Below, one piece after another: positions 21,898 to 57,615 of a stretch of DNA of 64,000 nt (position 1 is the first letter of the stretch; every line of letters starts with the position of its first letter). A program made the position numbers and the translations under genes. A model generated the notes under the pieces. That model was not told the DNA's origin, searched no databases, and was given only the letters and a program-made list of their open reading frames with translations. The stretch spans positions 13,813,807 to 13,877,806 of the forward strand of contig NC_134031.1 in NCBI RefSeq assembly GCF_964204645.1. Direction: 5' to 3'. This DNA comes from Tubulanus polymorphus. Its lineage: Eukaryota; Animalia; Nemertea.

Positions 21898-21987
21898 AGT
21901 AATTAGAAAAGTGGGGTTTCAGGCCAGAGGGCGTGAGGGCGAGACACCACTCATCACCACAAGTAATTTTTTTTCCTAATAAATGGG
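21898..21987 (+). repeat. Left TIR of element A (includes the pPolB start codon)
   Basis: Exact reverse complement of 39263-39352. Confidence 0.95.
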
Positions 21988-24900
21988 GGAGAATGAACAC
22001 CAACCAGAAAACAATAATGTCAATAAAAATCAATATTATTGCCAATATTGTAAAAAATACATCGATACATCTCATAAAACACGACATGAAAAAACTGCAA
22101 ATCATATAAAAAATGTAATAGATTTTGAAACTCCAGAAAATTCTAATGAAAGAAAAGAACGATTAGAAAATATGAATGTGGATGAAATAAAATGTGAAGT
22201 TTGTAATGAATTTATAGTAAAAAGGAATTATAATAGACATCTCGAATCACAAAAACATTATAAAAATTTAAATAAAAATGTTTTAGGATTAGAATATTTT
22301 GATAATAAACCTCAACAAGTAAAAGAATCAACTTCAAAAACTAAATCCATTTCAAATAAACCCTACATGGAAAATGTTAGAAATTATATTGATTCACTAG
22401 AAATAAAAGATACAATTGAAATCTTAGAAACATTACATAGTAAAATTGGTCCTGCAGCTATTATATTTAGATTTTTTAAAGGCACAACAATAGAAGATTA
22501 TAGTAAATTTAATGAAATAATAGAAAAAATACTAGATTTGATAACAGATGTTGAATATCCAAAAATTAGTATCTCTGGGAAAGTAAGTTTTATAAAGTCA
22601 GAAGAAAAAATGGATTATAATATTCAAACACTCTCTGAAGAAATAATTTCAAAAACACAAATAAAAGAGAAGTTAGAAAAAATATTAAATGAATTTAAAC
22701 GTCATATTGAAGAAAGATATTTTGAGGGTTCTGGTTTAACATTGAATGAAATTATATATTTAGATTTAAATGTTTATAATACAAAAAGAAATAAAACATC
22801 AAAAAGTAATAAAATGTTTAAAAATGATTCAAACTTTATAACAGAAAAAGATATGAAAGCATCAAGTTATATCAAATTACCATTTATAACAAAAGCAGTA
22901 ATAAATATTCAAAATGAAGATAATAAATGTTTTCTATGGTCAATTATTAGTTGCTTACATCCAACAGAAGAACATGTTTATAGAATAACAGATTACCGGA
23001 AATATGAAACATTATATAAAATTGATCAATATCCAGTAACTATAAAAATGATTCCTAAAATAGAAAAAGTTAATAATTTAAAAATAAATGTATTTGAATT
23101 AATGCAATTACCAAAGACAAAAGGTGAAAATATTAAAGATTATACATTGGAAGCTTTATATTTAACAGAATATTATGATGATGAAAATGCTATAGATTTG
23201 TTATATTACAAAAAAGATGAAAATGAACATTATATGTGGTTAAAACAAATTGATTTATTCTTTAGAACAACAGAAAGTGATCATCATCGTAAAATTTATC
23301 TTTGTAGAAAATGTTTATCTAAATTTATGACTGAGAATACATTATTAAAACATAAAGAATTATGTGATAATAAAGATTTTTGTAAATTAATAATGCCAAC
23401 AGAAAAAGATTATAAATTGAAATTTACTAATCATAAATTTAAAAATATTGTTCCATTTGTAATTTATGGGGATTTTGAATCGTTGAATAAAGAATTAACT
23501 GATCAAGATAGAAAAGAAATATATAACAAAAAGCAATTATTAAAATCAATGGATAAAGGAAATGAATTAAATGAAGATATAATTCAAGACCCACCAATTA
23601 TAAATACAATTAAAAAAGTTCATCAAAGAGCTGCTGCTTATGGAATTTATATAAAATCAAATTATCCCGAATTATATGAAAGTCAATATATTTCTTTTAG
23701 AGGTGAAAATGTAGTTAATGATTTTTGTGATAAAATGATTGAATTAGAAAGTGATTTTGCAAAATTATTAAACAAAAATAAAAGAATAGTTATGACAAAA
23801 GAAGATGAAATTGATTTTAATTATGCAACTCATTGTTGTTACTGTGAAAAACGTTTTTATTCATTTGATAAAAAAGTTAGAGATCATGATCATTTAAATT
23901 CAAAATATCGTGGAGCTGCTCATGAAGATTGCAATTTACAAGCTAAGAAAGTTAATTTCGTACCAATATTATTTCATAATTTATCAGGCTATGATACCCA
24001 TCTATTTATAAAACAATTATCGGGAAAATTGGGTGCAATTAATCAAGAAATAGAAGAATATAATGCTATGAATGAAGCAAATGTAAGAAAATATGATTTT
24101 AAACTATTAGCTAAAACATCTGAAAATTATATTTCATTTCAATTTGGTTGCATTAGATTTTTAGATTCTTATAGATTTCTAGCAAGTTCATTAGATAATT
24201 TATCAAAATCATTAGTTGATAATGATTTTATTATAACTCGATATTATTATCCAAATGAACAAGATTTTAAATTATTGAGATATAAAGGCGCAATTCCTTA
24301 TTCATTTTATAAAACACATGATGATTTTAATGTAACAGAATTATTAAAAGATCAATTTTATGATCAATTAAAAGAGGAGTATGTGAAAGACGAAGTGTTT
24401 AATAGAACATTAAATATTTGGAACCATTTTAAGATGAAAAATCATGGCGAATTAGTTGATTTATATTTAAAATCAGATGTTATGATATTGGCAGATATAT
24501 TTGAAAAGTTTAGAGAAGTTAATCTAAACCATTTTAATGTTGACCCTTGTTATTGTTATTCAAGTCCTGGTTTAACCTGGCAATGTGGTTTAAAATATAC
24601 AAATGTAGAATTAGATTTATTAAAAGAACCAGATATGGTTTTATTATTTGAAAAATCAATTAGAGGTGGAATTAGTGGTGTTATGGGAGATAGGTATTTT
24701 AAAGCAAATGATGAATATAAATTATTATATATTGACGCCAATAATTTATATGGTTGGGCAATGATGCAACCTCAACCATATAAAAATTTTATATTAACAG
24801 AAGTTGAAAATGATGATAAAACTGATTGGGAAAGCGCAATTACGAGTTTAAAAGATGAAGCGCCAATTGGTTACTTCTTTGTTATAGACTTAGAATATCC

Positions 24901-27049
24901 TGAACATATTAAATTTAAATCTAGAAACTTACCTTATTGCCCTGAACATTTAACTGTAGATGATAGTTATTTAAGTGAATACCAGAAGAAAGTAAAACCG
25001 AAAGATCATGTTTTTACGGAAAAATTAATACTTACTCAAAATAATAAATACAATTATATTGTTCATTATAGAATGTTAAAATTTTATCTAAAACAAGGAA
25101 TGAAATTAAAGAAAGTACATAGATATATTGAATTTAATCAATCGAAGTAGTTAGAAAAATATATAGATTTCAATACTCAACAGAGAACCATATCAAAAAC
25201 AGATTTTGAAAAAGATTTCTTTAAATTAATGAACAATAGTTTTTATGGTAAAACATGTGAAAATATTAGAAATAGAAATGATATTGAATTAGTAAATAAT
25301 TCTGAAAGATTAAGACATTTACAATCAAGTCCTAGACATTTAGGAAATAAAAGATTTGAAGATTATTTAACAGCAGTTAAATTAAAAAGAACATCAATGA
25401 AATTTAATAAACCTATATTTATTGGTTCGACTGTTTTAGAAGTATCAAAATTATTAATGTATGATTTTTATTATAATGTTTTACAACCACTTTTTGGAGA
25501 AAAACATATAGAAATATTATATTTTGATTCTGTAACAGCTGACACCCCAATATTATTAAAATGTAATGATAAAATATTGGTAAGAAGAATTTCAGAAATA
25601 ATTCCAAAACAAAATGAATGTTATATTTCATATGGTGAAAAAGAATTAATACAAATAAATGGATTAATGGATGTTTGGACAAGAAATGGATGGAAAAAAT
25701 TAAAGAATATTATTAGACATAAAACAAATAAGAAAATCTATAGAGTTAGAACTAAATTAGGATTTGTAGATGTTACAGAAGATCATAGTTTAATTAAACA
25801 AAATGGTGATGAAATAAAACCAACTGATATAAAAATTAGAGATGAATTATTACATAAAAGATTTTACCCAAGAATGAATCATATGTCATTTGATGAAATA
25901 ATTGATAATATTTATAATATAGAACCCGAAACATTGGAAGAAAAAGAATATTTTATCAAAGGATTTTTCATGGGCGATGGTTCAGCAGGTGTGTATAATT
26001 ATGTTAGTGGAACTAAATATTGTTGGTATTTATGCAATCAAGACTTAAAATTATTAGAAAGAATTAAGAAATTCTGTGAAGAAGTTTATTCACATAAAAC
26101 ATTTAGAATCATGGACCATATGAAATCATCCGCGGTTTATAGAATACTTGTAAATAATCCTAAAGATTTTGCTACAGAATATAATAATGAATTCTATATT
26201 CATGCAATAGTGAAAAGTAATACTTCAACAAAAGAAAAGATAGTTCCAGATTACGTATTAAATGCAAAAAATAATTTAAGAAAATGGTTCTTCATTGGAT
26301 TCTATGCTGCAGATGGTTCAAAAAGTTTCAAAAACCGCAAAACAATATCTTTAGCTCAAAAAGGAAAAGTTGCTATATCAGGATTGAATATATTATGCAG
26401 TTCATTAGGATTTAATATGAATATTGGATTGATTAAATCTAAACCAAATTGCTTTAATTTAAGCCATGTAGAAAATGAGTTAACAGAAGAAGTTAAAGAT
26501 TTATTTGAAATATATAACCCAACAGATTATGTTTATGATTTATCAACTGAAGATGGTACATTTAACTGTGGATTTCCATTAATAGCAGTCAATACGGATG
26601 CCTACATACTAAAAATCAAGACAAATGACATAACAAAAGACTTAAAAACATTAAAACATCATTTTGATTTTAGCAATTATCCTAAAGATCATGAACTATT
26701 TAGCAATGATAATAAAAAGATTCCTGGTAAATTTAAAGATGAATTAGGAGGTGATGAAATGATTGAATTTGTTGGGATAAGAAGTAAAATGTATTCATAT
26801 AAAACTAAAGAACATGAAGCTAAAAAGTTAAAAGGAATAACAAAACTTGTGGTTGATAATCATATAGAATTTCAAGATTATATAAAGTGTTTATATAAAT
26901 CAATTGTAATGAAACACAAAATGAATTGTTTAAGATCAGAAAATCATGAAATGTATATAAATGAAATTGAAAAAACTAGTTTAAATCCATTTGATGATAA
27001 AAGGCATATTTTAGATGATGGTATAAAAACATTACCTTATGGCCATTAA
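21983..27049 (+). pseudogene. polB: Protein-primed family B DNA polymerase polyprotein (N-terminal C2H2-like fingers, vOTU-like protease, exonuclease with HNH/EndoVII-like insert, polymerase, intein); interrupted by TGG>TAG at 25148-25150
   Basis: Motifs YGDFES, FHNLSGYD, FLDS, YLKSDV, YIDANNLYG, KLMNNSFYGK, YFD/TD, KMY, NPFDDKR; NEDNKCFLW..HY protease-like motif; DHDH..YRGAAH..CN. ORFs 21983-25150 and 25229-27049 are in the same frame and copy B has Trp at the stop. Confidence 0.93.
25529..26593 (+). mobile_element. Intein (355 aa) with LAGLIDADG homing endonuclease in pPolB motif C, copy A
   Basis: ILYFD/SVTADTPILL ... TEDH (block B) ... FIKGFFMGDG and FFIGFYAADG (two LAGLIDADG helices) ... 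YVYDLST (block F) ... LIAVN/TDAY; removal restores YFDTD. Confidence 0.95.
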
Positions 27050-36925: not shown

Positions 36926-37531
36926 ATGGTAGGTGAAAAGAAAATAAAATCTAAAAATGGTGATGTTCCAATTGAAAAAACTTTAGATAATTTAGGAATA
37001 ACAGAAACAAAATTAACTCCAGATGATGGTGTTTTAAATAATGTTACAACAAATAATAATTATGAATATTATCTTTATTGTAAACATCAATTAGAAATAT
37101 TAATAGCATCTGGAAAATGTAAAAATTTTGTCAGTAAAAATTTAACTTATAATGAATTAGACACAATGAAATCAGATGAAATTATTAGATTATTTAAGAT
37201 TTATGAAGCCGCGAGAACAGCTAGAATTAATGACGCGATATCATAAAATGTAGTAAAAGGTTATAGTAAATTATGTAATTATATACTACCAATTGAAAAT
37301 GAAAATAGATTATATTCCGATTTAAAAAATGACTATTTAGTTATGACTGAATTAAATAAATGGATTGGATATTTATCATTTCAATTAGGTGGATTTATGA
37401 CATTATTATCAACTGGAGTTATAACATTTTCAAATATTGAAAGTAAAAATATTTCTATAATAAATGAGCGAGGTGAAAGAAGTGAAGGAATTAACTGTGA
37501 AGAAAAAACCGAGAACTCAGAAACAAATTGA
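36926..37531 (+). pseudogene. Hypothetical protein split by GAA>TAA at 37244-37246
   Basis: ORFs 36926-37246 and 37343-37531 are one reading frame that is continuous in copy B (42181-42723). Confidence 0.8.
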
Positions 37532-37832
37532 ATGGTCTCGACAATTAGGAATTAAATCACAAGAATATAAAAAAGCTGTAAAAGAAAAAATAAGTAATAA
37601 AAATGTTAATAAAAATGGTGAAAATATTGTTATTTCTACTCCTTCTAATAATAGAATATTTGATAAATGTCTATATTCTACAGTTGGATTTGTAATTGTA
37701 TTCATTTTGATTGGGTGTAATTGGTATAAGAAATCAAATAAAATTCATGATATTAATAATTCTGAAACAAATGCTATCAAAAATGAAAATACTTCTGAAA
37801 TTCCAAAATTGATAATAAAAAAAATGGATTAA
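37464..37832 (+). CDS. Basic protein with single TM segment (122 aa)
   Basis: ATAAATG start; KKKPRT basic stretch; VGFVIVFILIG hydrophobic helix. Confidence 0.72.
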   Translation: MSEVKEVKELTVKKKPRTQKQIEWSRQLGIKSQEYKKAVKEKISNKNVNKNGENIVISTPSNNRIFDKCLYSTVGFVIVFILIGCNWYKKSNKIHDINNSETNAIKNENTSEIPKLIIKKMD

Positions 37833-38317
37833 TATTTTAGAAAAAAAGCAAAAAAAATAATTTTTTTTAATTAATTGAATATTAATTGAATATCTCACTA
37901 CTTTTGTCTATCTATGCGGAGCAATTAAATTGTCCAGATAAGTCATTTCGGATTCTAGATATTCATTATTTTTATTATTTTATTTTGTTTTTACTTGAAT
38001 ATTGTATTACAGTCGTTTCTTATTATTAGTTTTTTCTTAAATTGAAAGATGGCAGCACTGGGTGTGATGCTAAAATGAATATTTGAATTTGAATTTGAAT
38101 TTGTTAATCAATTAACATAGTAATTGATCACTAATTTGATTAAAAATTATATCATAATGAAGTTAAAAATACATAATTCATTTATCAGTTTCATTCTTAC
38201 ATTCTTTTCATTCAGAATAATTTATAATTTCAAATTTCACATATTTTTTTAACACCAACAACATTTACTTAGGTGTTTTAGCTAAGTATATAAGGTAATT
38301 CATTCAACCACTAGAGT

Positions 38318-38600
38318 GCCGCCGGGCTTGGCTTGCAGGGGCATTTCGAAAATGCACCTTTGCTCCGTGGTTCTCCTTCAGTTTCGACTTTCGATCCTCC
38401 TTTCGGGGGTAAGGGGTTGATAGGAAATGCATCAGGCGCCTTTAATATAATGTGTTTCCTGTCAACCATTGAAGGAGAATTGGTGAGGTGTGGGTCACAG
38501 GGGTGTAAGTAGAAGTGCTTGGGGATAGGTATCTCGTGGCGCCTCTCAATAACGGGATGCTTATCCCCTAAAAACTCTGCGAGTCAAGACGGGTGGTTTT
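38318..38600 (+). ncRNA. Putative structured non-coding RNA (~280 nt), possibly a Pol III transcript
   Basis: GC-rich ORF-less island with nested helices whose mismatches are G-U wobbles on the + strand; TATATAA at 38287; first TTTT at 38597-38600. Confidence 0.7.
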
Positions 38601-38940
38601 GCTAAAACTTACCATAAAAACATTGAAATATTCCTTTTAATCACGATAGAATGATGACTATCCTCCTGTTGTCACGGTTGAGCTAATTTAAATAAACCTC
38701 GTTTTCAGCAACTAATGAAAACGTAGTAATTCAATACCAGCTAACTGGCTTGTGTGTGTTGTATGTACTGTGTGCTTATTATATAACAACAACGTTGTGC
38801 AACACCTGTTTGATTGATAAATATTCAAATGAAGCACTCTCTTACAATAATATGTAACAGATGTACTGTATGATTATAGTTGTTTATAAAACGACTAAGG
38901 TCATTTTGGATTCTAGATATTCATTATTTTTATTTCTTAT

Positions 38941-39267
38941 TTAATCAACAATTTCTAAATCATGATGACCGTCTTCATTTTTCCCATGATATATTATTTT
39001 AAATCCTACTAAATCTTTCAATTCCTCCATACTCAATGAAACCCATTTATCGGGTAAAAACACTTTAAATTCTCGTGATGTACTAACATTACAGTAGCTT
39101 AAATTAGCTGATACTTTCTCTCCATATTTAGTTTTTATCTTTTCTAATTTCAATATTTTATGTTCAATTTCTTTTGTAACATCAACTAACTTTTTTATTT
39201 CAAATTGTTTTTTTGCTGGTTTTATTCTGTTATTTATTGTTGCTAAGAATGCTTTTCTATCTCCCAT
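38941..39267 (-). CDS. 108-aa terminal protein (possibly OB-fold ssDNA-binding; unverified)
   Basis: Start codon inside right TIR; nearly identical in copy B; TKYG...VFLP beta-rich pattern. Confidence 0.7.
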   Translation of the reverse strand: MGDRKAFLATINNRIKPAKKQFEIKKLVDVTKEIEHKILKLEKIKTKYGEKVSANLSYCNVSTSREFKVFLPDKWVSLSMEELKDLVGFKIIYHGKNEDGHHDLEIVD

Positions 39268-39352
39268 TTATTAGGAAAAAAAATTACTTGTGGTGATGAG
39301 TGGTGTCTCGCCCTCACGCCCTCTGGCCTGAAACCCCACTTTTCTAATTACT
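39263..39352 (-). repeat. Right TIR of element A
   Basis: Reverse complement of 21898-21987; followed by TSD TATAAT. Confidence 0.95.
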
Positions 39353-41208: not shown

Positions 41209-41329
41209 AGTAATTAGAAAAGTGGGGTTTCAGATCAGAGGGCGAGAGGGCGAGACACCACTCATCACCACAAGTAATTTTTTTTTTCCTACTCATCACC
41301 ACAAGTAATTTTTTTTCCTAATAAATGGG
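41209..41329 (+). repeat. TIR of element B with internal ~30-bp tandem duplication
   Basis: Matches 57526-57615; ACTCATCACCACAAGTAAT(T)nCCT occurs twice (41260-41290, 41291-41319). Confidence 0.92.
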
Positions 41330-41651
41330 AGATAGAAAAGCATTCTTAGCAACAATAAATAACAGAATAAAACCAGCAAAAAAACAATTTGAAATAAAAA
41401 AGTTAGTTGATGTTACAAAAGAAATTGAACATAAAATATTGAAATTAGAAAAGATAAAAACTAAATATGGAGAGAAAGTATCAGCTAATTTAAGCTACTG
41501 TAATGTTAGTACATCACGAGAATTTAAAGTGTTTTTACCTGATAAATGGGTTTCATTGAGTACGGAGGAATTGAAAGATTTAGTAGGATTTAAAATAATA
41601 TATCATGGGAAAAATGAAGACGGTCATCATGATTTAGAAATTGTTGATTAA
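41325..41651 (+). CDS. 108-aa terminal protein, copy B
   Basis: One substitution relative to copy A. Confidence 0.7.
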   Translation: MGDRKAFLATINNRIKPAKKQFEIKKLVDVTKEIEHKILKLEKIKTKYGEKVSANLSYCNVSTSREFKVFLPDKWVSLSTEELKDLVGFKIIYHGKNEDGHHDLEIVD

Positions 41652-41776
41652 ATTTAAAAAAAAATAAATTAATAAAAATAATGAATATCTAGAATCCGAA
41701 ATGACTTATCTGGACAATTTAATTGCTCCACATAGATAGACAAAAGTAGTGAGATATTCAATTAATATTCAATTAA

Positions 41777-42184
41777 TTAAAAAAAATTATTTTTTTTTTG
41801 CTTTTTTTCTAAAATATTAATCCATTTTTTTATTATCAATTTTGGAATTTCAGAAGTACTTTCATTTTTGATAGCAGTTGGTTCAGAATTACTAATATCA
41901 TGAATTTTATTTGATTTCTTATACCAATTACACCCAATCAAAATGAATACAATTACAAATCCAACTGTAAAATATAAATATTTATCAAATATTCTACTAT
42001 CAGAAGGAGTAGAAATAACAATATTTTCACCATTTTTATTAACATTTTTATTACTTATTTTTTCTTTTACAGCTTTTTTATATTCTTGTGATTTAATTCC
42101 TAATTGTCGAGACCATTCAATTTGTTTCTGAGTTCTCGGTTTTTTCTTCACAGTTAATTCCTTCACTTCTTTCACTTCGCTCAT
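41777..42184 (-). CDS. Basic single-TM protein, copy B (C-terminus altered by an A-run indel)
   Basis: Homolog of 37464-37832. Confidence 0.68.
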   Translation of the reverse strand: MSEVKEVKELTVKKKPRTQKQIEWSRQLGIKSQEYKKAVKEKISNKNVNKNGENIVISTPSDSRIFDKYLYFTVGFVIVFILIGCNWYKKSNKIHDISNSEPTAIKNESTSEIPKLIIKKWINILEKKQKKNNFF

Positions 42185-42723
42185 TTATTATAGAAATATT
42201 TTTTACTTTCAATATTTGAAAATGTTATAACCCCAGTTGATAATAATGTCATAAATCCACCTAATTGAAATGATAAATATCCAATCCATTTATTTAATTC
42301 AGTCATAACTAAATAATCATTTTTTAAATCGGAATATAATCTATTTTCATCTACAATTGGTAGTATATAATTACATAATTTACTATAACCTTTTACTACA
42401 TTTTCTGATATCGCGTCATTAATTTTAGCTGTTCTCGCGGCTTCATAAATCTTAAATAATCTAATAATTTCAACTGATTTCATTGTATCTAATTCATTAT
42501 AAGTTAAATTTTTATCAACAAATTTTTTACATTTTCCAGATGCTATTAATATTTCTAATTGATGTTTGCAATAAAGATAATATTCATAATTATTATTTGT
42601 TGTAACATTATTTAAAGCACCATCATCTGGAGTTAATTTTGTTTCTGTTATTCCTAAATTATCTAAAGTTTTTTCAATTGGAACATCACCATTTTTAGAT
42701 TTTATTTTCTTTTCACCTCCCAT
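42181..42723 (-). CDS. Hypothetical protein (180 aa), copy B
   Basis: Continuous homolog of 36926-37531. Confidence 0.75.
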   Translation of the reverse strand: MGGEKKIKSKNGDVPIEKTLDNLGITETKLTPDDGALNNVTTNNNYEYYLYCKHQLEILIASGKCKKFVDKNLTYNELDTMKSVEIIRLFKIYEAARTAKINDAISENVVKGYSKLCNYILPIVDENRLYSDLKNDYLVMTELNKWIGYLSFQLGGFMTLLSTGVITFSNIESKKYFYNK

Positions 42724-42754
42724 TTATAAAACAAATAAATTAGTTGTGTTGTTG

Positions 42755-43027
42755 CAACTAGAATTCAACTAGAATTCAACTAGAATGTAACTAGAATTCA
42801 ACTAGATTAACAAGCTAGTTGAAATATTGTTGTTTTTGTTTATTTCTTGTTAAATCTAGTTGATTTTTGTTTCAACTACTAACAACTAGAATTCAACTAG
42901 AATGTAACTAGAATTAGACTAGATTGACAAGCTAGTTAAAATATTGTTAAATCTAGTTGATTTTTGTTACAACTACCAATAACTAGAATTCAACTAGAAT
43001 TCAATTAGATTAACAAGCTAGTTGAAT
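42755..43027. repeat. AACTAG/CTAGTT repeat array, copy B
   Basis: Counterpart of 36642-36895 with a different unit number. Confidence 0.85.
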
Positions 43028-43636
43028 TTAAATAAATTCATATTTAAATGGGTGTTGTAATCTAAATAGTAATTTTGATCTTTTAATATTTTTCAACTTA
43101 TCCATATATTCATTATGTAAATCATGTGGAATAATATCATTTTCCTCAAGTGCATTTTTCATTGATTTTCTATCTTTATTGTAGAATAAAACTAGAAATC
43201 TTATATTCTCTCTAAAATCTTTCACAATTGAATTATATTTTTGATTTAAAACCCAAGTTGTTATCCCAAAATGTCTCCCAGAGAAAGCTAAATAGCATAA
43301 CTCACTTTCTCTAATTTTTGAATCATGTAAATTTGCACAATCATCTATGATAAATAATGTATTTGATCCTTTATAAATATCAATTGCTATTTTTATACAA
43401 TTATCTAAATTTTCTTTTACTGTTTTAGGATCTAATATAATAAATTTATTATTCCTAGTAATATTTCTATCATAAGTTTGATTAAATTCATATGTTGGAC
43501 AAAATAATACTATATTATCAAAATAGTTTTTGTAAACAGTTTCTAATAAATTTAATATGAAATAAGTTTTTCCACAATTTGTTACGCCAGAAATTAACAT
43601 ATTATGAGGCTCAAATATGAATAATTCCTTATTCAT
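43028..43636 (-). CDS. A32/FtsK-like packaging ATPase, copy B
   Basis: Walker A/B and GRH motifs intact. Confidence 0.93.
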   Translation of the reverse strand: MNKELFIFEPHNMLISGVTNCGKTYFILNLLETVYKNYFDNIVLFCPTYEFNQTYDRNITRNNKFIILDPKTVKENLDNCIKIAIDIYKGSNTLFIIDDCANLHDSKIRESELCYLAFSGRHFGITTWVLNQKYNSIVKDFRENIRFLVLFYNKDRKSMKNALEENDIIPHDLHNEYMDKLKNIKRSKLLFRLQHPFKYEFI

Positions 43637-44764
43637 TTATATATTTTTAATTTTACTTGATAATATCCATTCATTGAATTTATCTGGCCATCCAACCCAT
43701 TTTACTAAAGAATATTTTTTTCTTTTAATAGTTTTTGTTTTTAGTACTTTTTCAATTTTATATTCTTGTTCTATATTTTCAGTAGTTAAACTTAATTCTT
43801 CTTCATAAAAATATCCATCAACTTCTTCACCATCTAAATCTTCTAATTTATAGACATATGGTTTAGTTGTTATTACCTTTTTTATTTTATATATTTCTCT
43901 AGTAAAATTTCGATCGTATCCTTTATCAAATATCTTTTTATACTTAGAAATTCTAACATTTTGACCAACTTTAAATTTAGGTTCACCAAAATCATCTACA
44001 AGAAATGCTCCATATAAATTATTCCAAACAATTTCAGCATTTTCAGGTTTTCTAGCATCAATAGGTTTCATTCCAATAGAAGAATGATAAGAATTATTAT
44101 ATCCTTCTATCAATTTTGGTAAAACATCAATCCATTTAAAAGTATTATTTGCTGTAAAATATTTCCACATTCTTGTTCTTAATGTTCTATTAAATCGTTC
44201 AACAACTGCTGCTTTTTTATCCGATTTTGTTGAAAAATATTTAATATTATGAAAATCTAAAAGTCCATGAACAAGTGAATTATCAAATTCTTTTCCATCA
44301 TCAAATTGTATTTTTTCTGGTTTTAGTTTATCATCCGAAAGAAATTTTCTTAAAACATTTGATGTTTGTACAGCATCTTTTCTATAAAGTGGGAAACTCC
44401 ATACATAACGACTAAAAATATCAATTATATTCAATAACCACCAATAATCATCATTATCTTTCTTAACATTTTTCATATCAATTAAATCTCCTTGCCACTG
44501 TTGATCTACATAACTTACCATAGTTTTACGAGTTTTATATTTTCTAACAATTTTTTTATGTGTTGTATATGTTGGTTGTTCTAACATAAATTCATTTATA
44601 TCTTTATATTTAACTAAATTTTGTGGGATTATCTTATCTAATTTATCTTGTTTTACTTTACGCCATATATTTTTAGTAGAAGAATAAGCAACCGAACTCT
44701 CAGGGTTGTAATATAAATTTCTTAAATATTGTTCTTTAATATTAGGAGTTTTTTTACCACTCAT
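43637..44764 (-). CDS. rve integrase with chromodomain, copy B
   Basis: DDE motifs and chromodomain intact. Confidence 0.95.
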   Translation of the reverse strand: MSGKKTPNIKEQYLRNLYYNPESSVAYSSTKNIWRKVKQDKLDKIIPQNLVKYKDINEFMLEQPTYTTHKKIVRKYKTRKTMVSYVDQQWQGDLIDMKNVKKDNDDYWWLLNIIDIFSRYVWSFPLYRKDAVQTSNVLRKFLSDDKLKPEKIQFDDGKEFDNSLVHGLLDFHNIKYFSTKSDKKAAVVERFNRTLRTRMWKYFTANNTFKWIDVLPKLIEGYNNSYHSSIGMKPIDARKPENAEIVWNNLYGAFLVDDFGEPKFKVGQNVRISKYKKIFDKGYDRNFTREIYKIKKVITTKPYVYKLEDLDGEEVDGYFYEEELSLTTENIEQEYKIEKVLKTKTIKRKKYSLVKWVGWPDKFNEWILSSKIKNI

Positions 44765-44794
44765 TTATATATCCTTAATTTTAACTTTATATTT

Positions 44795-46042
44795 CTAATA
44801 TTGAATACTATCTAATTGTGAATTTACAATATTTAATTGTGCGTCAGATATAATATAAATATGCATTTTAAAATTTTTGATTCCTTTATTCTTTTTCATG
44901 AATAATTGTATTCCATCTTTTGTATTTTGTAGTTTTTTTCCAGAACCATGTAATGAATTATCTTCAGTTGTTCTAAAATCTAACCATAATGCATATTTAT
45001 TACCGGTATAATAATCAATTTGATTAATATTACAATTTTCAAATGATTTTATTTTTTCATTCATAAAATGTTTTTTAATTTCTACCCATTGATCAATCAT
45101 TCTCATTCCTTGACAAAATATTTTATTCGCTATTCCTTCGATAGTTATTTCTACTTTTGTTATTTCAGGATTATAATAATTATCAACATTTATTGCGCCA
45201 TTAGTATACGTTCCAATGGTAAAAAATATTAATATACCTTTAATAGATCTTCTAGGGAAGTTAATATTCACATTAATTATTTCATCATTTGCATTAATAG
45301 TTACAGTTTTAAATTTATCAATATAATCATATAATAATGAAAACCCTTGATTATATTTAGTTTGAATTATACTTGAAATATTTTCATCAGTTACTATATC
45401 ATATTCTAAACATATATTCGATAATTTATAACTCATATCTTTATTAACGCTAGATATTACGATTTCATTTACAGGAGCAAATGTTATCTCAAATATAATA
45501 TCTTCTTGAATTGCGTATTTATATAAAGGTGCATTATTATTTATCAATTCAAAGTCTAATGGAATTTTATATTTGCTTCCATATATACTTTTTATCAATT
45601 TATCTACATCATTTGTTAATATTGCGCTATTAGCTTCTGATCTTAATTTATTTTGGTTTTCTGATTGAATACCCTGAAATATCATATTATTTCTATTTTC
45701 TTTAGTTAACCATAAATCTTTATAATGCATAAATAAATTATAATCATCTAATGAGAAAACTGTTTCCGGACCAATCTTTATTGTTAACTTTTTAATCAAA
45801 TATCTTCCAACATTATCAACGACATAATTATTATTATTACCGATTACTTTTATATCGGCTGATAAATAAATACTATTTGGAACATAAAAAGTATTTTGTG
45901 TTAATCTAGGGATTTTAACGTATAAAGTTTCATCGGGATTAATATTTGAAGGGTTATGAGTAATTATATGATGTGATCTTTCTGCTTTAATAGCATTAGA
46001 TATTCTATGATTCTTCGAAGGACTTATATAACTCCCACTCAT
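44795..46042 (-). CDS. Probable major capsid protein, full length (415 aa), copy B
   Basis: Homolog of 33627-34853 with intact C-terminus. Confidence 0.74.
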   Translation of the reverse strand: MSGSYISPSKNHRISNAIKAERSHHIITHNPSNINPDETLYVKIPRLTQNTFYVPNSIYLSADIKVIGNNNNYVVDNVGRYLIKKLTIKIGPETVFSLDDYNLFMHYKDLWLTKENRNNMIFQGIQSENQNKLRSEANSAILTNDVDKLIKSIYGSKYKIPLDFELINNNAPLYKYAIQEDIIFEITFAPVNEIVISSVNKDMSYKLSNICLEYDIVTDENISSIIQTKYNQGFSLLYDYIDKFKTVTINANDEIINVNINFPRRSIKGILIFFTIGTYTNGAINVDNYYNPEITKVEITIEGIANKIFCQGMRMIDQWVEIKKHFMNEKIKSFENCNINQIDYYTGNKYALWLDFRTTEDNSLHGSGKKLQNTKDGIQLFMKKNKGIKNFKMHIYIISDAQLNIVNSQLDSIQY

Positions 46043-46113
46043 TTATTTAACAAAAAAATTAATTATTTATTTTTTGATATCATGGTTTACTTGATATTTT
46101 TTGATATCATGGT

Positions 46114-47521
46114 TTACTTGATATTTTTTGATATCATATTCACTAACCCAAAAATAATAGCACTAACAACTGTGATTAAAAATAAAATAATATGTTCAGC
46201 AGCAAAGTTAAGAATATTCCCAGCAGATTTCAATATAAAACCAACAATTGAAGCAATAACTCCTGGCAATGCTAAATATTTTGCTAATTTCTTTAAACCA
46301 TCCTTAACTTTATCTTGTATAGAATTATTGCCTGGAGGTTTATCTGGTTTATTTGGAGTAGGAGTAGATTTCAAAGCATTTGATATTGCTAAACCAATTG
46401 TTGTGAATAACATAGTTACAGCTGTTAGAATTGAAAGAATTGTTATTCCTTCTAATTTAAATAATAACTTTATTCTATCTTTCAATGATATTTCAGAATT
46501 TGGTTTTATCAACAAATCTTTAAAAATAACTTTTAATCTATTTATATTATAATCATACGATTTTAACGATAATTTAATTTCTTCTTTTTGTAATTCTATG
46601 TTATATTCTAAATCATCTTTTTCTTTTTCTAAACGTAACTCTTTTTGCCTATATTCTATTTCATCAATTACTTGATGATCTAAATCAGACTTTAATTGTT
46701 CTATTTCTTTATTTTTATCAGTTAATTCTTTTTCTAAAGTTCTAATTTTAAAATCTCTTATACTTTTATTATGTGCAATTTTATCAGATGCAAGTCTTAT
46801 ACTAATCTCTAATTGCTTTATCAGAAAATATATCTAAATCTTCTAATTCTTGATCTGTTGCATCAAGTAATCCCTTCGGTAAAAGTTTTTCAGTTTGAAC
46901 TTCTCTTGAATTAGGTCTACTAGTTTTGGAAGTTTTATCTTCTTTAGGAATTGTTTCTGGTTCTAAATTTTCATTAATTATCTTCAAAAAATCATTATTT
47001 CTTCGATTAAATTCTCTTCTATTTTGATTTATCTCTTCTTCTGTAACATCAGTTATAACATCATTATTGATTTTTTTAATTCTAGATTGTTCTAATTTAA
47101 TAAAAGTTGATTTTGTTATTATTTTATCAAGACTTTTATTAGAAGAAATCTTAAAATAATAGTCATCTTTCAAATGCCAATAATAATCACCATTTAAATA
47201 TTTCAAATCTTTTACTAAATAATTCACACCTTTATTTGTTATATTGAATCCAGATTTTTCTAATATTGGTTTGAATTTATCTGTTAATTCGTCATATTCT
47301 AGTTCTTTTTTCATTAAATCTGGATTTTCATTTTCAATGTCCAATCTTGAACGTGCTTTATTAACATATTCATTGGTATCAGGTCTTGCTAAATTAGAAT
47401 TATATGCTGTTTCATTTTCGTTACTGAAACTTGTTTCATCAAAATCAGGTGGTTGTTCATCAGTTATACCAGGTTCATCAAAAGGATCCATTCCAATATC
47501 TTCTCCACCTTCTACTTCCAT
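46114..47521 (-). pseudogene. Coiled-coil/membrane protein, copy B, frameshifted near 46800
   Basis: Homology to 32008-33606 continues in another frame (ASDKIAHNKSIRDFKIR); also lacks WELSKKSAA and has 27-bp tandem duplications at its 3' end. Confidence 0.8.
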
Positions 47522-47537
47522 TTATATAATAAAAAAA

Positions 47538-48839
47538 TTAAAATTTAAAATATAATATTCCTCCGATTACAATTCCTATACAAGTTATAGCTAATTTAGT
47601 ATTTTCATGGGATTTATTATCATCATTTAGTTTAATTATATCATGTTGAATTTTATCAGTTTTTATATCTTCTGATGTATTGTAATCTTTTATTTTAGAA
47701 TCATTATTTAATTTAATATTCTTAGTTTTAGTTTCTGTTGATTGAATATGTTTTTTATTTTTTTCACCTTCCATTAATTTTGGAGCAGTGATAATCTTTT
47801 TATTTATATCATTTAACCCAAATGAATTATTTATTGTTGCAGTTTTAATTAGATTATTATAACCAATTATATTTCCCATCTTCAATACTAAATCCTTAGA
47901 AATAATTAATAGATTAGGGCCTATACAATAATTAAGTCTTACATGAGATTTATCTAAATAATTTTGATATCTTATAATGTTTTCTGGAATCGATCTATTT
48001 TTATCATTATGAATTGAATCTTCAAATAAAACTTTAAACTGTTTCTGCGCATCGAATGAAGTGTTATCATTTCCAATTATTGGGGATCTTGTTTCAACTT
48101 GAGCGCCTAAAATACATATCAAATAAATTCTAATAGATTGATTTATTCTTTGTATACCTGATTTTGTAAAACCTTCACCATTTTCTAAAATGAAATTAAC
48201 CCAACTATTATTATTATCAATTTTATAATTATGATAAGCTCCAATTCTATGCATATAATCAATTCTTTTTATTTCATACTCTTCACCAACACCTTGCAAT
48301 TTACCATGCGCTCTAAAATCGGAATTAATATTTATATTAAATTCATTACATATTTTATAAAACTTGGATATATTAATATTATTATCCAATTCTTTAAAAT
48401 ATTTAGACCCGGGTAAAGGACATTCTAATTCATTTAATATTATTCTGATTTGAAAATATGTGTGAAATCTAAATATTGTGTGAATTAATTTTAAATCAGA
48501 ATACTTCAAATTTTTATCTAAGTTATTTAAATGATCATTCCAACTAATTCCACATCCTGTTGTTGCACAATAAACAGCAAAATTTAATTGATTCTGCCAA
48601 TATTTCATATTAGATTTTACTTTATATATATGATATTCATCTCGAGTAAAAGTAACTTCATATGTATTAAATATATTTTCCATTTTAGAAATAAAAAACT
48701 GTGATTCATTAACATAAATTTCTAAATTAGTTAATGAATTTAAAACTATATTTTTATATGTAATATTTTTCTTAAAATCTATTGCCGGAATATTATATTT
48801 AATTGATTTATTATATTGGAAAGCTTTTGGAAACCCCAT
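47538..48839 (-). CDS. 433-aa C-terminally anchored protein, copy B
   Basis: Near-identical to 30690-31991. Confidence 0.8.
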   Translation of the reverse strand: MGFPKAFQYNKSIKYNIPAIDFKKNITYKNIVLNSLTNLEIYVNESQFFISKMENIFNTYEVTFTRDEYHIYKVKSNMKYWQNQLNFAVYCATTGCGISWNDHLNNLDKNLKYSDLKLIHTIFRFHTYFQIRIILNELECPLPGSKYFKELDNNINISKFYKICNEFNININSDFRAHGKLQGVGEEYEIKRIDYMHRIGAYHNYKIDNNNSWVNFILENGEGFTKSGIQRINQSIRIYLICILGAQVETRSPIIGNDNTSFDAQKQFKVLFEDSIHNDKNRSIPENIIRYQNYLDKSHVRLNYCIGPNLLIISKDLVLKMGNIIGYNNLIKTATINNSFGLNDINKKIITAPKLMEGEKNKKHIQSTETKTKNIKLNNDSKIKDYNTSEDIKTDKIQHDIIKLNDDNKSHENTKLAITCIGIVIGGILYFKF

Positions 48840-48855
48840 TTATATAACTAAAAAA

Positions 48856-49290
48856 TTAATAATTTATTAATTCTTTTAATAATTTATCTTGTTCTTCAAC
48901 TGTTATATGACCATTTAAACTTATTATATAATCTAGTGTGTTCTTTAATTTATTAATTTCTTTTATATTAGTTTTAATTTTTTCTTTATTACTTTTTATA
49001 TTTAATTTTGAACTTATACCAGTTAAAACACTTGAACTTAATCCTAATACACCAATTGATATAGCTAAAGGTGTTAATGGACTGAATATTGCTAAAAATG
49101 TTATTACAGAACTAATTGTAACCGAACCACTTATAATCAAATAATATATAATTTTACTTTTTAAATATTTTTTCTTTTTAACTTTTAAGTCACTTTCAAA
49201 TTCTAATATTTGTTTTTCTAAATATTTTTTTAATTTAGTTTTATTTATATCATGAGGAATAATATCAATACTATCAACTTTATCTTCCAT
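48856..49290 (-). CDS. Two-TM protein, copy B
   Basis: Homolog of 30239-30673. Confidence 0.78.
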   Translation of the reverse strand: MEDKVDSIDIIPHDINKTKLKKYLEKQILEFESDLKVKKKKYLKSKIIYYLIISGSVTISSVITFLAIFSPLTPLAISIGVLGLSSSVLTGISSKLNIKSNKEKIKTNIKEINKLKNTLDYIISLNGHITVEEQDKLLKELINY

Positions 49291-49322
49291 TTATTTAGAA
49301 TAAAAATTACTTATTAGTAAAT

Positions 49323-49733
49323 TTATAAGCAACAAATATAACAATAACTTGTTCCACCTAAAATCCATATTATTTCATATTTCTGTTGTTCTTTACTTGG
49401 GGTATAATAATCTGATAATTTAGGTTTGTATAGATGTAATTTTTCTTTATTTGTTACTGCGTTATATAAACTCATTGCATCATCAACTGATTGAAAATCT
49501 CTATGTGAAATCTTCTGATCATATAATTCTTTATTGATGTAATCCATATAGTTTTGTCTCTTTTCTCTATATTCTTCTGCAGCTTTATTGTATTTCTCTA
49601 ACGCTAAGTTATGTCTTCTTTGTTCTCCTAATGAACTATTTTTATCAATATGTTTAAATAAATAACCACCACCAGTAAATGCTAAAGCGTTAACAATTGC
49701 CGATCCTATAATAGTTATAATTGCAGAAGCCAT
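49323..49733 (-). CDS. Membrane protein, copy B (frameshift alters the C-terminal TM)
   Basis: Homolog of 29797-30219; diverges after LGGT. Confidence 0.7.
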   Translation of the reverse strand: MASAIITIIGSAIVNALAFTGGGYLFKHIDKNSSLGEQRRHNLALEKYNKAAEEYREKRQNYMDYINKELYDQKISHRDFQSVDDAMSLYNAVTNKEKLHLYKPKLSDYYTPSKEQQKYEIIWILGGTSYCYICCL

Positions 49734-49757
49734 TTATTTAACAAAAAAATTATGCAT

Positions 49758-49979
49758 TTATATGGGAGGAATATATTTTTGTTTTTCCAAATAATCAATA
49801 GTTAAATTAGATAAAGTAACTGCTAATGTTAACTTTAAAATATCATTTATATCAAATCTATCAACATTAACACTTCCCATTTTGAATACTTTTTTTAATA
49901 CCATTGAATAACCAACAGTTCCAACTGATAGTAAGGCACCATTATATAATCCAGTTATTATCCACTTATTATCATTCAT
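49758..49979 (-). CDS. Small hydrophobic protein (73 aa), copy B
   Basis: Homolog of 29551-29772. Confidence 0.75.
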   Translation of the reverse strand: MNDNKWIITGLYNGALLSVGTVGYSMVLKKVFKMGSVNVDRFDINDILKLTLAVTLSNLTIDYLEKQKYIPPI

Positions 49980-50321
49980 TTATTTATCAAAAAAATTACT
50001 ATCATCAAAATATTTAGTTAACTTATTTATGATTAATTCAACATTTATTTCATTACTAGTTTTATGATTATCATATATTTTGGATAATATGTTTTTAATA
50101 TCTTCAATAATTCCATCTTCATTTAATTCATAATATTCTAAAGGTGATTTAATTAAATCAATTACTTTTTCTATATTATACTTTTCTTCATCAATCATTG
50201 ATGCATTGTTAAATGATTTACTTTTTATATCAGTAATTACATCATTTAGTTTAATTCTCATTTCTTTACCATGTTTAAAATCAAACCCAAAACATATACT
50301 CGGTCCAACAGTTATATTCAT
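49980..50321 (-). CDS. Hypothetical protein (113 aa), copy B
   Basis: Homolog of 29191-29547 with divergent middle. Confidence 0.75.
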   Translation of the reverse strand: MNITVGPSICFGFDFKHGKEMRIKLNDVITDIKSKSFNNASMIDEEKYNIEKVIDLIKSPLEYYELNEDGIIEDIKNILSKIYDNHKTSNEINVELIINKLTKYFDDSNFFDK

Positions 50322-50337
50322 TTATATAGGTGAAAAA

Positions 50338-51099
50338 TTACTCTTTACATCTTATAACTAATTCATAAATTACAGGAAAGTTATTCAAATCAATTAAGTA
50401 TCCATTATGATTTCTAATTTCTAATCTAAAATTATTAAAACTAGGAATGCATGGTTTGAAATCACAATCTGTTAAATTATAATTTATTTGCGTTCCAAAT
50501 TCTTTAACATTCTTCCATGGTAAAATGTTTAGTAAACCAGAATTACAAGTTATATCTTTAGTTGCTTCGAATGTTTTTGTAGGATCGATTAAATTGCAAT
50601 AAATATAAAAATGTGTGTAAGGTATTAAGTTTGGTGTAGTAGCGTCAATATTTGTAAAAGATCTATCTGGAAGAATTCCTAACAGTTTAGCTATAGGTTT
50701 TTTTACCATAAGTTTATGTTTTTCACTATTAGACAACCTTATCTTTATTCTATCAGAACTCTCACTTTTTAAAAATCTAATACTAAACCCAGAACTACTA
50801 CCTAATTTGTGCCAGGCTTTTCTATTAATTTCTTGTGCTAATGTATCTAAATTATATAACCCTGGTTTTAAATATATATAGACCCATTCATTTTTATTTC
50901 TAATATTAATTAAAATGACTCTATGTTCAATAGACTTATCCGATACATTGTAAAAAGAATTACATAAACTTATATTAACTAATTTTAAATCTACACAATT
51001 CTTAAATTCTCTATCTAATTGTACTAGTAAATTATGAGATTTATAATTTGTAAGTTTTCTAGAATCAACAAATATTCTGTATTCTTTTAATTCTACCAT
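50338..51099 (-). CDS. Minor capsid protein (penton), copy B
   Basis: Homolog of 28416-29174 with divergent central region. Confidence 0.8.
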   Translation of the reverse strand: MVELKEYRIFVDSRKLTNYKSHNLLVQLDREFKNCVDLKLVNISLCNSFYNVSDKSIEHRVILINIRNKNEWVYIYLKPGLYNLDTLAQEINRKAWHKLGSSSGFSIRFLKSESSDRIKIRLSNSEKHKLMVKKPIAKLLGILPDRSFTNIDATTPNLIPYTHFYIYCNLIDPTKTFEATKDITCNSGLLNILPWKNVKEFGTQINYNLTDCDFKPCIPSFNNFRLEIRNHNGYLIDLNNFPVIYELVIRCKE

Positions 51100-51167
51100 T
51101 ATTTATAACACAAAAAAATTACCGCTCATCACTAAAAATTAATTTTAATAAAATTTTTCCTTAATAA

Positions 51168-52469
51168 ATGGATGAGAAGATAGCATGCGAAATTTGTGGT
51201 GAACTTCTAAGAAAAAGTAATATGGCTCGACATATGAAAAAACATGATGAAAATTATAAACCCCCTAAAATAAACTGTCCAAAATGTAATAAATTATTCT
51301 CAAGAAATTATGTTAAAAAACATTCAGAGAAGTGTAGAATTAATGGCGCAACGGCTAATGTTGATAGTAATTCTGCTGAAGTTGAACCTGAAGTTATTTG
51401 GAAAAGACCTTTCTTATTCTATGATAAGGATAATATAAAAGATCATTTCTGTGAGCCTTGTCAAGTAAAATATAGCCCTGAAAATATAGAAGATTGGGAG
51501 AATCATCAATTTCGTAAAGCACATATAGATAAAATTTCTAATAAATTTGAAACTGAATTCAATGAAAGAAAAAATAATTTATTAGAAAAAATAAAATATG
51601 AGAAAACGTTACCAGATAATAAAGAAACAGTTGAAAAGTTAGAAAAACAATATAATGAATTAACAAGAAAAACATATTATTGTAAATATTGTAAATTGAT
51701 TATTACAACAAGTAATTCAAATCTACATAATAGAACAATAAAACATAAAGAAAACGTAAGAAAATACCAAGAGCTTAATGAAGATCTATTACCAATAAAT
51801 TATAAACGAAAATGCCCACAATGTAGTTATGCGACCTTAAGACAAGAAGGTACTGTGTTATTTTGTGTTGAATGTGGATGGCAAAAGAATTTATGGGGTG
51901 AAGAAAAAACTAGAGATTTTCTCATAGAACCAAAATTAAATTATCTAGATGAAATTTTTAAAATATTTTCTATAGAAGATCATACACCAGAATATATGCA
52001 ATGGCTTGAAAAAATGAAAATAATAGAAAATAAAAATGGTGAAATAACTAAAAAAGATATTATAAAAACAATTATTCCACCAACATTTAACACAAAACAA
52101 AAGAAAATGTATTTATATTTATTATTTAACGATTATTATGAAAAACCTAAATTAACAGAAGAAGATATGGAAAATATAAAAAAAATATTTAAACAAATAT
52201 TAATGTATCATTTGGAAAATAGAATAACAGATTCAATAAATTATGAATTCTTTTTAAATAAGATTGTAAATTATTTAAACCTAGATATTATAATTCCATT
52301 TGATGAATTAACAAACAAAAAGAAACAAAGAGAGCGAGATGAAATGTGGAACAAGATAGAACTTTATTTAAATGAGAAAAATGGAATGGAAGAAGAACCT
52401 GAACAATTAAATGAAAATGAAGAAGCCAATAGTGATTTCGAGTATGATGATATTGATTTTATGTTTTAA
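51168..52469 (+). CDS. Zinc-finger/VLTF3-like protein, copy B
   Basis: Near-identical to 27046-28347. Confidence 0.7.
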   Translation: MDEKIACEICGELLRKSNMARHMKKHDENYKPPKINCPKCNKLFSRNYVKKHSEKCRINGATANVDSNSAEVEPEVIWKRPFLFYDKDNIKDHFCEPCQVKYSPENIEDWENHQFRKAHIDKISNKFETEFNERKNNLLEKIKYEKTLPDNKETVEKLEKQYNELTRKTYYCKYCKLIITTSNSNLHNRTIKHKENVRKYQELNEDLLPINYKRKCPQCSYATLRQEGTVLFCVECGWQKNLWGEEKTRDFLIEPKLNYLDEIFKIFSIEDHTPEYMQWLEKMKIIENKNGEITKKDIIKTIIPPTFNTKQKKMYLYLLFNDYYEKPKLTEEDMENIKKIFKQILMYHLENRITDSINYEFFLNKIVNYLNLDIIIPFDELTNKKKQRERDEMWNKIELYLNEKNGMEEEPEQLNENEEANSDFEYDDIDFMF

Positions 52470-55400: not shown

Positions 55401-57530
55401 AGCTAATAGTTTAAAATCATATTTTCTTACATTTGCTTCATTCATAGCATTATATTCTTCTATTTCTTGATTAATTGTACCCAATTTCTTTGATAATTGT
55501 TTTATAAATAGATGGGTATCATAACCTGATAAATTATGAAATAATATTGGTACGAAATTAACTTTCTTAGCTTGTAAATTGCAATCTTCATGAGCAGCTC
55601 CACGATATTTTGAATTCAAATGATCATGATCTCTAACTCTTTTATCAAATGAATAAAAACGTTTTTCACAATAACAACAATGAGTTGCATAATTAAAATC
55701 AATTTCATCTTCTTTTGTCATAACTATTCTTTTATTTTTGTTTAATAATTTTGTAAAATCACTTTCTAATTCAATCATTTTATCACAAAAATCATTAACT
55801 ACATTTTCACCTCTAAAAGAAATATATTGACTTTCATATAATTCGGGATAATTTGATTTTATGTAAATTCCATAAGCAGCAGCTCTTTGATGAACTTTTT
55901 TAATTGTATTTATAATTGGTGGGTCTTGTATTGCGTCTTCATTTAATTCATTTCCTTTATCCATTGATTTTAATAATTGCTTTTTGTTATATATTTCTTT
56001 TCTATCTTGATTAGTTAATTCTTTATTCAACGATTCAAAATCCCCATAAATTACAAATGGAACAATATTTTTAAATTTATGATTAGTAAATTTCAATTTA
56101 TAATCTTTTTCTGTTGGCATTATTAATTTACAAAAATCTTTATTATCACATAATTCTTTATGTTTTAATAATGTATTCTCAGCCATAAATTTAGATAAAC
56201 ATTTTCTACATAGATAAATTTTACGATAATGATCACTTTCTGTTGTTCTAAAGAATAAATCAATTTGTTTTAACCACATATAATGTTCATTTTCATCTTT
56301 TTTGTAATATAACAAATCTATAGCATTTTCATCATCATAATATTCTGTTAAATATAAAGCTTCCAATGTATAATCTTTAATATTTTCACCTTTTGTCTTT
56401 GGTAATTGTATTAATTCGAATACATTTATTTTTAAATTATTAACTTTTTCTATTTTAGGAATCATTTTTATAGTTACTGGATATTGATCAATTTTATATA
56501 ATGTTTCATATTTCCGATAATCTGTTATTCTACAAACATTTTCCTGTGCTGGATGTAAGCAACTAATAATTGACCATAGAAAACATTCATTATCTTCATT
56601 TTGAATATTTATTACTGCTTTTGTTATAAATGGTAATTTAATATAAGATGATGCTTTAATATCCTTTTCTGTTGTAAAGTTTGAATCATTTTTAAACATT
56701 TTATTACTTTTTGATGTTTTATTTCTTTTTGTATTATAAACATTTAAATCTAAATATATAATTTCATTCAATGTTAAACCAGAACCCTCAAAATATCTTT
56801 CTTCAATATGACGTTTAAATTCATTTAATATTTTTTCTAACTTCTCTTTTATTTGTGTTTTTGAAATTATTTCTTCAGAGTGTGTTTGAATATTATAATC
56901 CATTTTTTCTTCTGACTTTATAAAACTTACTTTCCCAGAGATACTAATTTTTGGATATTCAACATCTGTTATCAAATCTAGTATTTTTTCTATTATTTCA
57001 TTAAATTTACTATAATCTTCTATTGTTGTACCTTTAAAAAATCTAAATATAATAGCTGCAGGACCAATTTTACTATATAATGTTTCTAAGATTTCAATTG
57101 TATCTTTTATTTCTAGTGAATCAATATAATTTCTAACATTTTCCATGTAAGGTTTATTTGAAATAGATTTTGTTTTTGAAGTTGATTCTTTTACTTGTTG
57201 AGGTTTATCATCAAAATAATCTATTCCTAAAACATTATTTCTCAAATTTTGACGGTGTTTTTCTGTTTCGAGATGTCTATTATAATTCCTTTTTGTTATA
57301 AATTCATCACAAACTTCACATTTTATTTCATTCACATTCATATTTTCTAATCGTTCTTTTCTTTCATTGGAATTTTCTGGAGTTTCAAAATCTATTACAT
57401 TTTTTATATGATTTGCAGTTTTTTCATGTCGTGTTTTATGAGATGTATCGATGTATTTTTTACAATATTGACAATAATATTGATTTTTATTGACATTATT
57501 GTTTTCTAGTTGGTGTTCATTCTCCCCCAT
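52466..57530 (-). pseudogene. polB: Protein-primed PolB with intein, copy B; frameshift near 55010
   Basis: GCAGATATA-AGT-AAAGTTTAG versus GCAGATATA-TTTGA-AAAGTTTAG in copy A (net 2-nt loss) splits the gene into ORFs 55002-57530 and 52466-54880. Confidence 0.93.
52922..53986 (-). mobile_element. Intein (355 aa) with LAGLIDADG endonuclease, copy B
   Basis: YFD/SVTADTP...FINGFFMGDG...FFIGFYAADG...LIQKN/TDAY; same site and length as in copy A. Confidence 0.95.
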
Positions 57531-57615
57531 TTATTAGGGAAAAAAATTACTTGTGGTGATGAGTGGTGTCTCGCCCTCTCGCCCTCTGATCTGAAACCCC
57601 ACTTTTCTAATTACT
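57526..57615 (-). repeat. pPolB-side TIR of element B
   Basis: Reverse complement of the 41209 terminus; followed by TSD TATATG. Confidence 0.95.

Follow-up and report, generated by a model that had tools for sequence, protein, structure and literature searches.

The closest described relatives of the element studied here are the inteins in motif C of the family-B DNA polymerases of giant viruses (Mimiviridae and relatives), whose insertion site is called 'pol-c'. Algal and protist genomes also harbour integrated polymerases of giant-virus type in which inteins have been reported (PMC10710043). The group I intron of angiosperm cox1 has left co-conversion tracts, one of which was kept after the intron was lost (PMC3192709). 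In haloarchaeal inteins silent changes of the target are tolerated (PMC3024317) and resistant alleles are met (PMC10643990), and an arms race at a LAGLIDADG target was described for the WHO endonuclease of Torulaspora and its target FBA1 (bioRxiv 10.64898/2026.08.13.744650). Within Polintons, the polymerase pPolB2 of nematodes, oomycetes and molluscs carries HNH and VSR domains (bioRxiv 10.1101/2023.08.22.554363; PMC11161782), and a one-line guess at intein invasions is given in one of these papers (PMC11161782). The word 'intein' is absent from the available text of the nematode Polinton paper (bioRxiv 10.1101/2023.08.22.554363). The idea that an intein had been described in vertebrate Mavericks was not borne out, with 0 occurrences of the word in the available text of two Polinton surveys (PMC8097293, PMC8502044). 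In the literature covered, which leaves aside subscription papers and supplements, no Polinton polymerase was found described as containing an intein of the splicing type that includes an endonuclease.

The window, that is, the whole stretch of 64,000 nucleotides that was analysed, contains two Polintons, A and B, in inverted orientation and about 93.5% identical. The features that define Polintons/Mavericks are present: terminal inverted repeats, a 6-bp target-site duplication, and genes for a protein-primed DNA polymerase (pPolB), an integrase and a packaging ATPase, these genes being recognized by Pfam searches of the Polinton open reading frames (ORFs). The Pfam search of the window ORFs gave no match to the capsid proteins and protease of Polintons; one ORF (33627-34850) resembles viral capsid clusters in a protein atlas, a likeness with a low recognition value. 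Named relatives of pPolB include oyster and spider sequences, which are the ground for regarding the host as probably animal. Both pPolB genes carry a 1065-bp in-frame insert that splits the Asp and Thr of the catalytic motif YxD-TDx. The elements, their polymerase genes and the inserts lie at the following positions of the window.

21898..39352, + strand: Polinton A, inverted repeats at both ends, target-site duplication of 6 bp
41209..57615, - strand: Polinton B, inverted repeats at both ends, a separate target-site duplication of 6 bp
21983..27049, + strand: pPolB gene of A, with an in-frame stop at 25148-25150, 5' of the intein
52466..57530, - strand: pPolB gene of B, with a frameshift near 55010, 5' of the intein
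25529..26593, + strand: intein of A, 355 amino acids (Ser1-Asn355), with a Hint domain and a predicted two-motif LAGLIDADG endonuclease
52922..53986, - strand: intein of B, its protein 90% identical to that of A, with both catalytic aspartates retained

Since the breaks in both pPolB genes precede the intein, A and B are likely relics, and neither gene is likely to make the endonuclease at present. Several other features of the two elements were recorded. Both terminate in AGTAATTAG (39260-39356 and 41205-41705), and about 945 bp near the right end of A are absent from B. In the ORFs at 28416-29547 and 32008-33606, amino-acid changes between A and B far outnumber silent ones, unlike in the core genes (49/18, 35/8 and 144/42 codons with replacement/silent changes, the last with many in-frame indels); these are candidates for host-facing proteins under diversifying selection. 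B is inserted within a host repeat (41203-41208, 57616-57714), other copies of which lie at 10004-11278, 15636-16750 and 62685-63689. The host flank also contains imperfect palindromes of about 500-600 bp at 13486-13972 and 18467-19069.

The sequence of the insert in A and B identifies it as an intein with a two-motif LAGLIDADG endonuclease, for which both splicing and cleavage are predicted. The splicing residues S1, T83/H86 of block B and D337 of block F are invariant across 82 aligned rows, and the C-terminal N355 is followed by Thr at +1, as in class 1 inteins. The penultimate His is absent, being replaced by Val in A and by Lys in B; several viral relatives also have Lys, and the P0002 intein has His. 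The predicted fold (pLDDT 93) matches the TliVMA intein, PI-PfuI, PI-SceI and I-DmoI. Loss of catalytic residues as a cause of dead enzymes was ruled out, since D150 and D262 (in A, at 25976 and 26312) are kept in both copies.

The nearest relatives of the intein are found in three Polinton-type polymerases (64, 49 and 46%), followed by the inteins of giant-virus polymerases at about 35-41% identity. A tree built from 35 of these 82 rows, and rooted at the midpoint only, set the five Polinton-type inteins apart from the 30 others by a branch with 100/100 support. One protein (P0004) has the same intein in exteins dissimilar to those of P0001 and P0002, which suggests a jump between types of Polinton polymerase. 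None of the loci L038-L114 has the intein. No close relative of the Polintons was found among the viral contigs searched, and one distant relative was found among the genome contigs. Relatives of Polinton-type polymerases also occur in bacterial genome bins (L115 and P0126), where they are probably contamination.

The intein is present in some copies of the family and precisely absent from others. In raw reads from another study with the same species label (X5, 12% read), depth was 578 over the exteins and 218 over the intein, so that about 33-43% of the family copies carry it. Forty-eight reads skip exactly the 1065 bases, 47 further reads join the exteins with other letters between them, and the loci L039-L043 are empty relatives.

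According to the original prediction, the homing site itself had been silently recoded between A and B as an escape from cleavage. Directly upstream of the insertion point (25514-25528), A reads ATA TTA TAT TTT GAT and B reads ATT CTG TAC TTC GAT. The five changes are indeed all silent, and four of them run towards C/G; the ATA/ATT difference does not. They are not peculiar to the site, being the end of a longer tract.

25307..25528, + strand: upstream tract of A, with 21 of 68 codons silently different from B, the A side being closer to the outgroup
53987..54208, - strand: upstream tract of B, derived and C/G-richer, its last five codons forming the site earlier read as recoded

Silent changes affect 21 of the 68 codons of this 220-bp tract versus 48 of 1174 in the remaining extein, and without its last five codons the tract is still silently changed at 17 of 63 (P 3e-9). 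A density of four in five recurs in three other five-codon windows (25307, 25364-25367 and 26561), and the five-codon site, a window picked post hoc, differs from the remaining tract at P 0.029. The polarity of the tract is given by the empty outgroup L039, which equals A at 15 of the 21 codons and B at 2. B is the C/G-richer copy in 15 codons versus 1 within the tract, and in 18 versus 16 outside it. The tract holds 22 silent and 5 replacement changes (pN/pS 0.06). No donor of the B tract was found among the sequences compared.

A silent-divergence peak confined to the site was rejected on these data, since the changes span 220 bp. Silent recoding as escape was likewise rejected for A and B, because both copies are occupied, and an occupied allele cannot be cut, so that its flanks lie outside escape selection. 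The reads agree. Reads at least 80% alike were aligned to 170 bp of the empty relative L039, with occupied copies clipped at the junction. Common variants occupied 6 of the 30 positions within 15 bp of the insertion point, not a higher density than in the remaining 170-bp stretch (25 of 140; P 0.80), so that the elevated junction divergence that had been expected was absent over this stretch; one of the 41 rows behind these counts, an A>C change by tally, was not displayed. In the nine bases before the junction, no variant reached 10% among reads crossing empty sites, and the Tyr and Phe codons of B are therefore rare there (<10%). The silent cluster beside the intein is likely a conversion scar and not a recoded target; the narrow claim of silent recoding thus comes down to something ordinary, a conversion tract.

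The flank on the other side of the intein is shared by A and B, and the C/G-ending codons reported there in both copies are present as quoted.

26594..26641, + strand: downstream flank of A, 48 bp in common with B, with codons that end in C/G and, at +3, Ala where Ser is usual
52874..52921, - strand: downstream flank of B, counterpart of the A flank

In each copy C/G is the last letter of 7 of the first 16 codons, compared with 8-10% in the background (binomial P 2e-4 and 6e-4, for a window chosen post hoc), and of 20 codons only 1 is different between A and B. Among the reads, the first 48 bp downstream hold 16 variable sites and the next 37 bp hold 1 (P 3e-4). The shared flank is a minority form carried by 17-22% of the family reads; together with a depth step from 427 to 501, the matching frequencies suggest that it may be linked to the intein in the window's family. 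At +3, 108 of 110 related intein-free polymerases have Ser and 1 has Ala, the residue present in A, B and L041 and also in the second family described below. The intein is itself a mosaic between A and B, with some blocks nearly identical and others diverged, among the latter the following.

26279..26593, + strand: 3' third of the A intein, with pS between A and B of 0.44 (0.09 in the first 250 codons)

Flanking changes linked to the intein were also found in a second family, composed of P0002 and two neighbouring clusters. Among the 30 of its 151 proteins that were listed, 22 span the site, 7 with the intein and 15 without. All ten fixed differences between the two groups, over 1191 columns, fall at -7..+44. 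The intein-linked flank (+1..+11) occurs exactly in 18 of 117 proteins of a sister clade, and the three empty types tested occur in 0 of 117. Judged from these alignments, the flank reads as a co-conversion tract with a plausible donor in the sister clade. A large Polinton clade on long contigs (P0262-P0378) has several common versions of the catalytic motif among its 117 proteins: YMD-TDS in 32, YMD-CDS in 32, YID-TDG in 15, YID-TDA in 12 and YVD-TDG in 12.

A comparable patch lies in an empty copy, L041. All 15 differences between L041 and the equally empty L042 over 2432 bp fall at -43..+9 of the site, as do 15 of the 21 that separate L041 from L043 over 3893 bp. Over the 54 bp of the patch, L041 differs by 7 from B, by 8 from A and by 15 from its sister L043, and L043 keeps its expected tie to L040 (6). 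Outside the patch the L041 lineage is 26% diverged from that of A and B. Five of the twelve changed codons alter the amino acid, and the direction of change has no overall C/G bias (6 versus 5). The patch is known from one assembly, and its likeness to B lies at the 6th percentile of windows, which is not extreme. In two other near clusters no change was found at the site.

Homing with co-conversion of the flanks is the part of the original prediction that is supported, by the tract with its polarity and direction, by the mixture of empty and occupied copies in the reads, by the second family and by the L041/L042 pair. It probably explains the B tract, the flank that A and B share downstream, the mosaic structure of the intein and the fixed differences of the second family. 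The silent patches beside the intein would be the inner ends of gene-conversion tracts brought by homing from other Polinton lineages. An intact occupied copy would make the endonuclease, which would cut, elsewhere in that nucleus, the YxD-TDS codons of a copy still empty. With the occupied copy as template, repair would import the intein with tens to hundreds of flanking bases, and a template of a diverged lineage would leave a patch of differences, mostly silent because the polymerase is under purifying selection. Repair off a diverged empty copy would likewise patch an empty site, and the site would then become a hotspot of allele exchange, spreading any variant that is not cut. Against this reading, A and B are mosaic elsewhere too, and a single tract could lie beside the intein by chance. 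Plain co-conversion also leaves unexplained the three motif versions among the empty alleles of the second family.

Those versions bear on a target-escape arms race superimposed on homing, in which empty alleles are selected for changes of the cut site and the endonuclease shifts its specificity in reply. This reading is tentative and has rather less than even chances. Its target escape by silent recoding in A and B did not hold up; the wider idea did find support, in site-centred changes of empty alleles. These would be mainly residue changes at the non-catalytic positions -2, +1 and +3, a course compatible with co-conversion, and the occupied copies would be old escape alleles invaded later. 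The 15 empty proteins of the second family read YFD-TDA (5), YGD-TDA (4) or YTD-CDS (6), none of them the YMD-TDS of the occupied copies. Thr and Cys at +1 both permit intein splicing. In six of the empty proteins, 5 of 10 site columns are variable versus 68 of 890 elsewhere (P 6e-4), although few independent haplotypes underlie such protein-level column counts, which overstate the significance. Of ten clusters, four have the site as their most variable 18-residue window; three of these four are one family, and the other six have no peak. Diversity at +1 and +3 is 0.43 and 0.57 in the sister clade versus 0.00 and 0.04 in a control clade, which is more diverged, whatever the past exposure of either clade to the intein. 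Escape would also fit the Ala at +3, which is so rare among intein-free relatives (1/110) and yet recurs in both Polintons of the window, in L041 and in the second family, and the five replacements among the twelve changed codons of L041. On the other side stand the family reads, in which diversity does not peak at the site, and the two near clusters unchanged there; neither the sister clade nor the L041 cluster showed a member with the intein. In favour of escape, 8 of 24 silent changes gave resistance to WHO6 (bioRxiv 10.64898/2026.08.13.744650); against it, LAGLIDADG enzymes were reported to be tolerant of single silent changes (PMC3024317).

The reply of the enzyme was sought in amino-acid differences that had been said to cluster after each LAGLIDADG helix, on strands contacting DNA. 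The clustering is real: 12 of the 35 differences between the A and B inteins are found in two stretches of 12 residues, each behind a catalytic aspartate (Fisher P 1.5e-7).

25982..26017, + strand: first cluster, V155A, N157K, S160W and T162N, on a predicted beta1-beta2 hairpin
26318..26353, + strand: second cluster, 8 of 12 residues changed (264-275), in a predicted loop and the start of a strand

The first cluster does lie on predicted strands (151-158 and 161-170), whereas most of the second does not, six of its eight changes being in a predicted loop (263-273) and two on the strand. Presumably, if the register of I-CreI applies, V155, N157 and T162 would point off the DNA and S160W alone would be a likely contact; by the same assumed register the second cluster would include even-register positions, and also a charge reversal, R270D. 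In the second endonuclease domain, 8 of the 12 changes are confined to the 12 residues of the cluster. This confinement favours a special role of the clusters, as does the first cluster with a pN/pS of 1.33, from just five replacement changes versus one silent. Against such a role, the second cluster, besides its changes in the loop, has a pN/pS of 0.35 and falls within a recombinant block where silent divergence is high (0.44-0.48), and the changed columns are variable across the entire intein family (entropy 2.06 versus 1.42).

Free recombination of diverged Polinton lineages, with the patches near the intein a chance sample unrelated to homing, is unlikely. Other divergent patches do occur along polB (22133-22357, 24758-24982 and 26783-26990) and in other genes, Ser codon switches are present elsewhere in polB, and the reads have no diversity peak at the site. 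Yet across the whole element pair, counted per 80 codons, silent changes are densest in the upstream tract (23) and next in the 3' part of the intein (17), all ten fixed differences of the second family and all 15 between L041 and L042 lie at the site, and one 52-bp tract would cover a given point by chance in about 1-2% of cases.

That the C/G-rich codons were made in place by GC-biased or error-prone repeated repair, and not brought from a C/G-richer donor, would suit the bias of the B tract (15 versus 1 codons, against the unbiased 18 versus 16 outside) and the 7 of 16 downstream codons ending in C/G, but is very unlikely given the 22 silent versus 5 replacement changes of the tract, which fit a long-selected donor, the L041 patch with its 6 versus 5, and the first 250 intein codons, which lean the opposite way. 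Both chance mosaicism and biased repair in place fit worse than homing with co-conversion.

Resistance in the targets of inteins is hard to study, as empty and occupied alleles are usually spread across separate strains. Here very many copies, with and without the intein and with several versions of the site, are likely to be present in a single genome, so that homing, co-conversion and escape could be counted within one assembly. The system is that of a homing intein carried by some members of multi-copy Polinton families and missing from others, the empty alleles having changes centred on the site. The fullest account would have an intein of giant-virus type homing among Polinton copies in eukaryotic, probably animal, nuclear genomes, empty copies escaping through residues of the catalytic motif, resistant patches passing between lineages by break repair, and the endonuclease re-specifying; it is rather less likely than not. 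If true, the system would be a natural gene drive inside a transposon family.

In comparison with known systems, WHO/FBA1 likewise joins a LAGLIDADG enzyme to diversified target codons, with alleles that are possibly unequal in sensitivity. WHO leaves its target whole and must avoid self-cleavage, whereas an intein splits its own target, so that escape selection is possible in empty alleles only; selection and cleavage were measured for WHO/FBA1 (bioRxiv 10.64898/2026.08.13.744650), and the Polinton intein is known here from sequences. Empty and occupied haloarchaeal mcm alleles also differ in flanking residues, and invasion needs co-conversion, but resistance there is a proline that blocks splicing (PMC10643990), and +1 is Thr or Cys here. 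The cox1 intron tracts resemble those of A and B in being mostly silent diagnostic differences left over tens of bases by a homing element (PMC3192709); here the element is an intein, tracts lie on both sides and reach 220 bp upstream, and donor and recipient both belong to a nuclear element present in many copies. The HNH/VSR pPolB2 proteins also place an endonuclease domain within a Polinton polymerase (bioRxiv 10.1101/2023.08.22.554363; PMC11161782). Those are fused domains (bioRxiv 10.1101/2023.08.22.554363), whereas in the A/B intein the Hint domain is complete and the empty alleles are exact. The giant-virus motif-C inteins share the Asp/Thr insertion point of YxD-TDS, begin with Ser1, end with Asn, carry two LAGLIDADG motifs and are 35-41% identical to those of A and B; the host of the A/B intein differs, being the protein-primed polymerase of an integrated Polinton.
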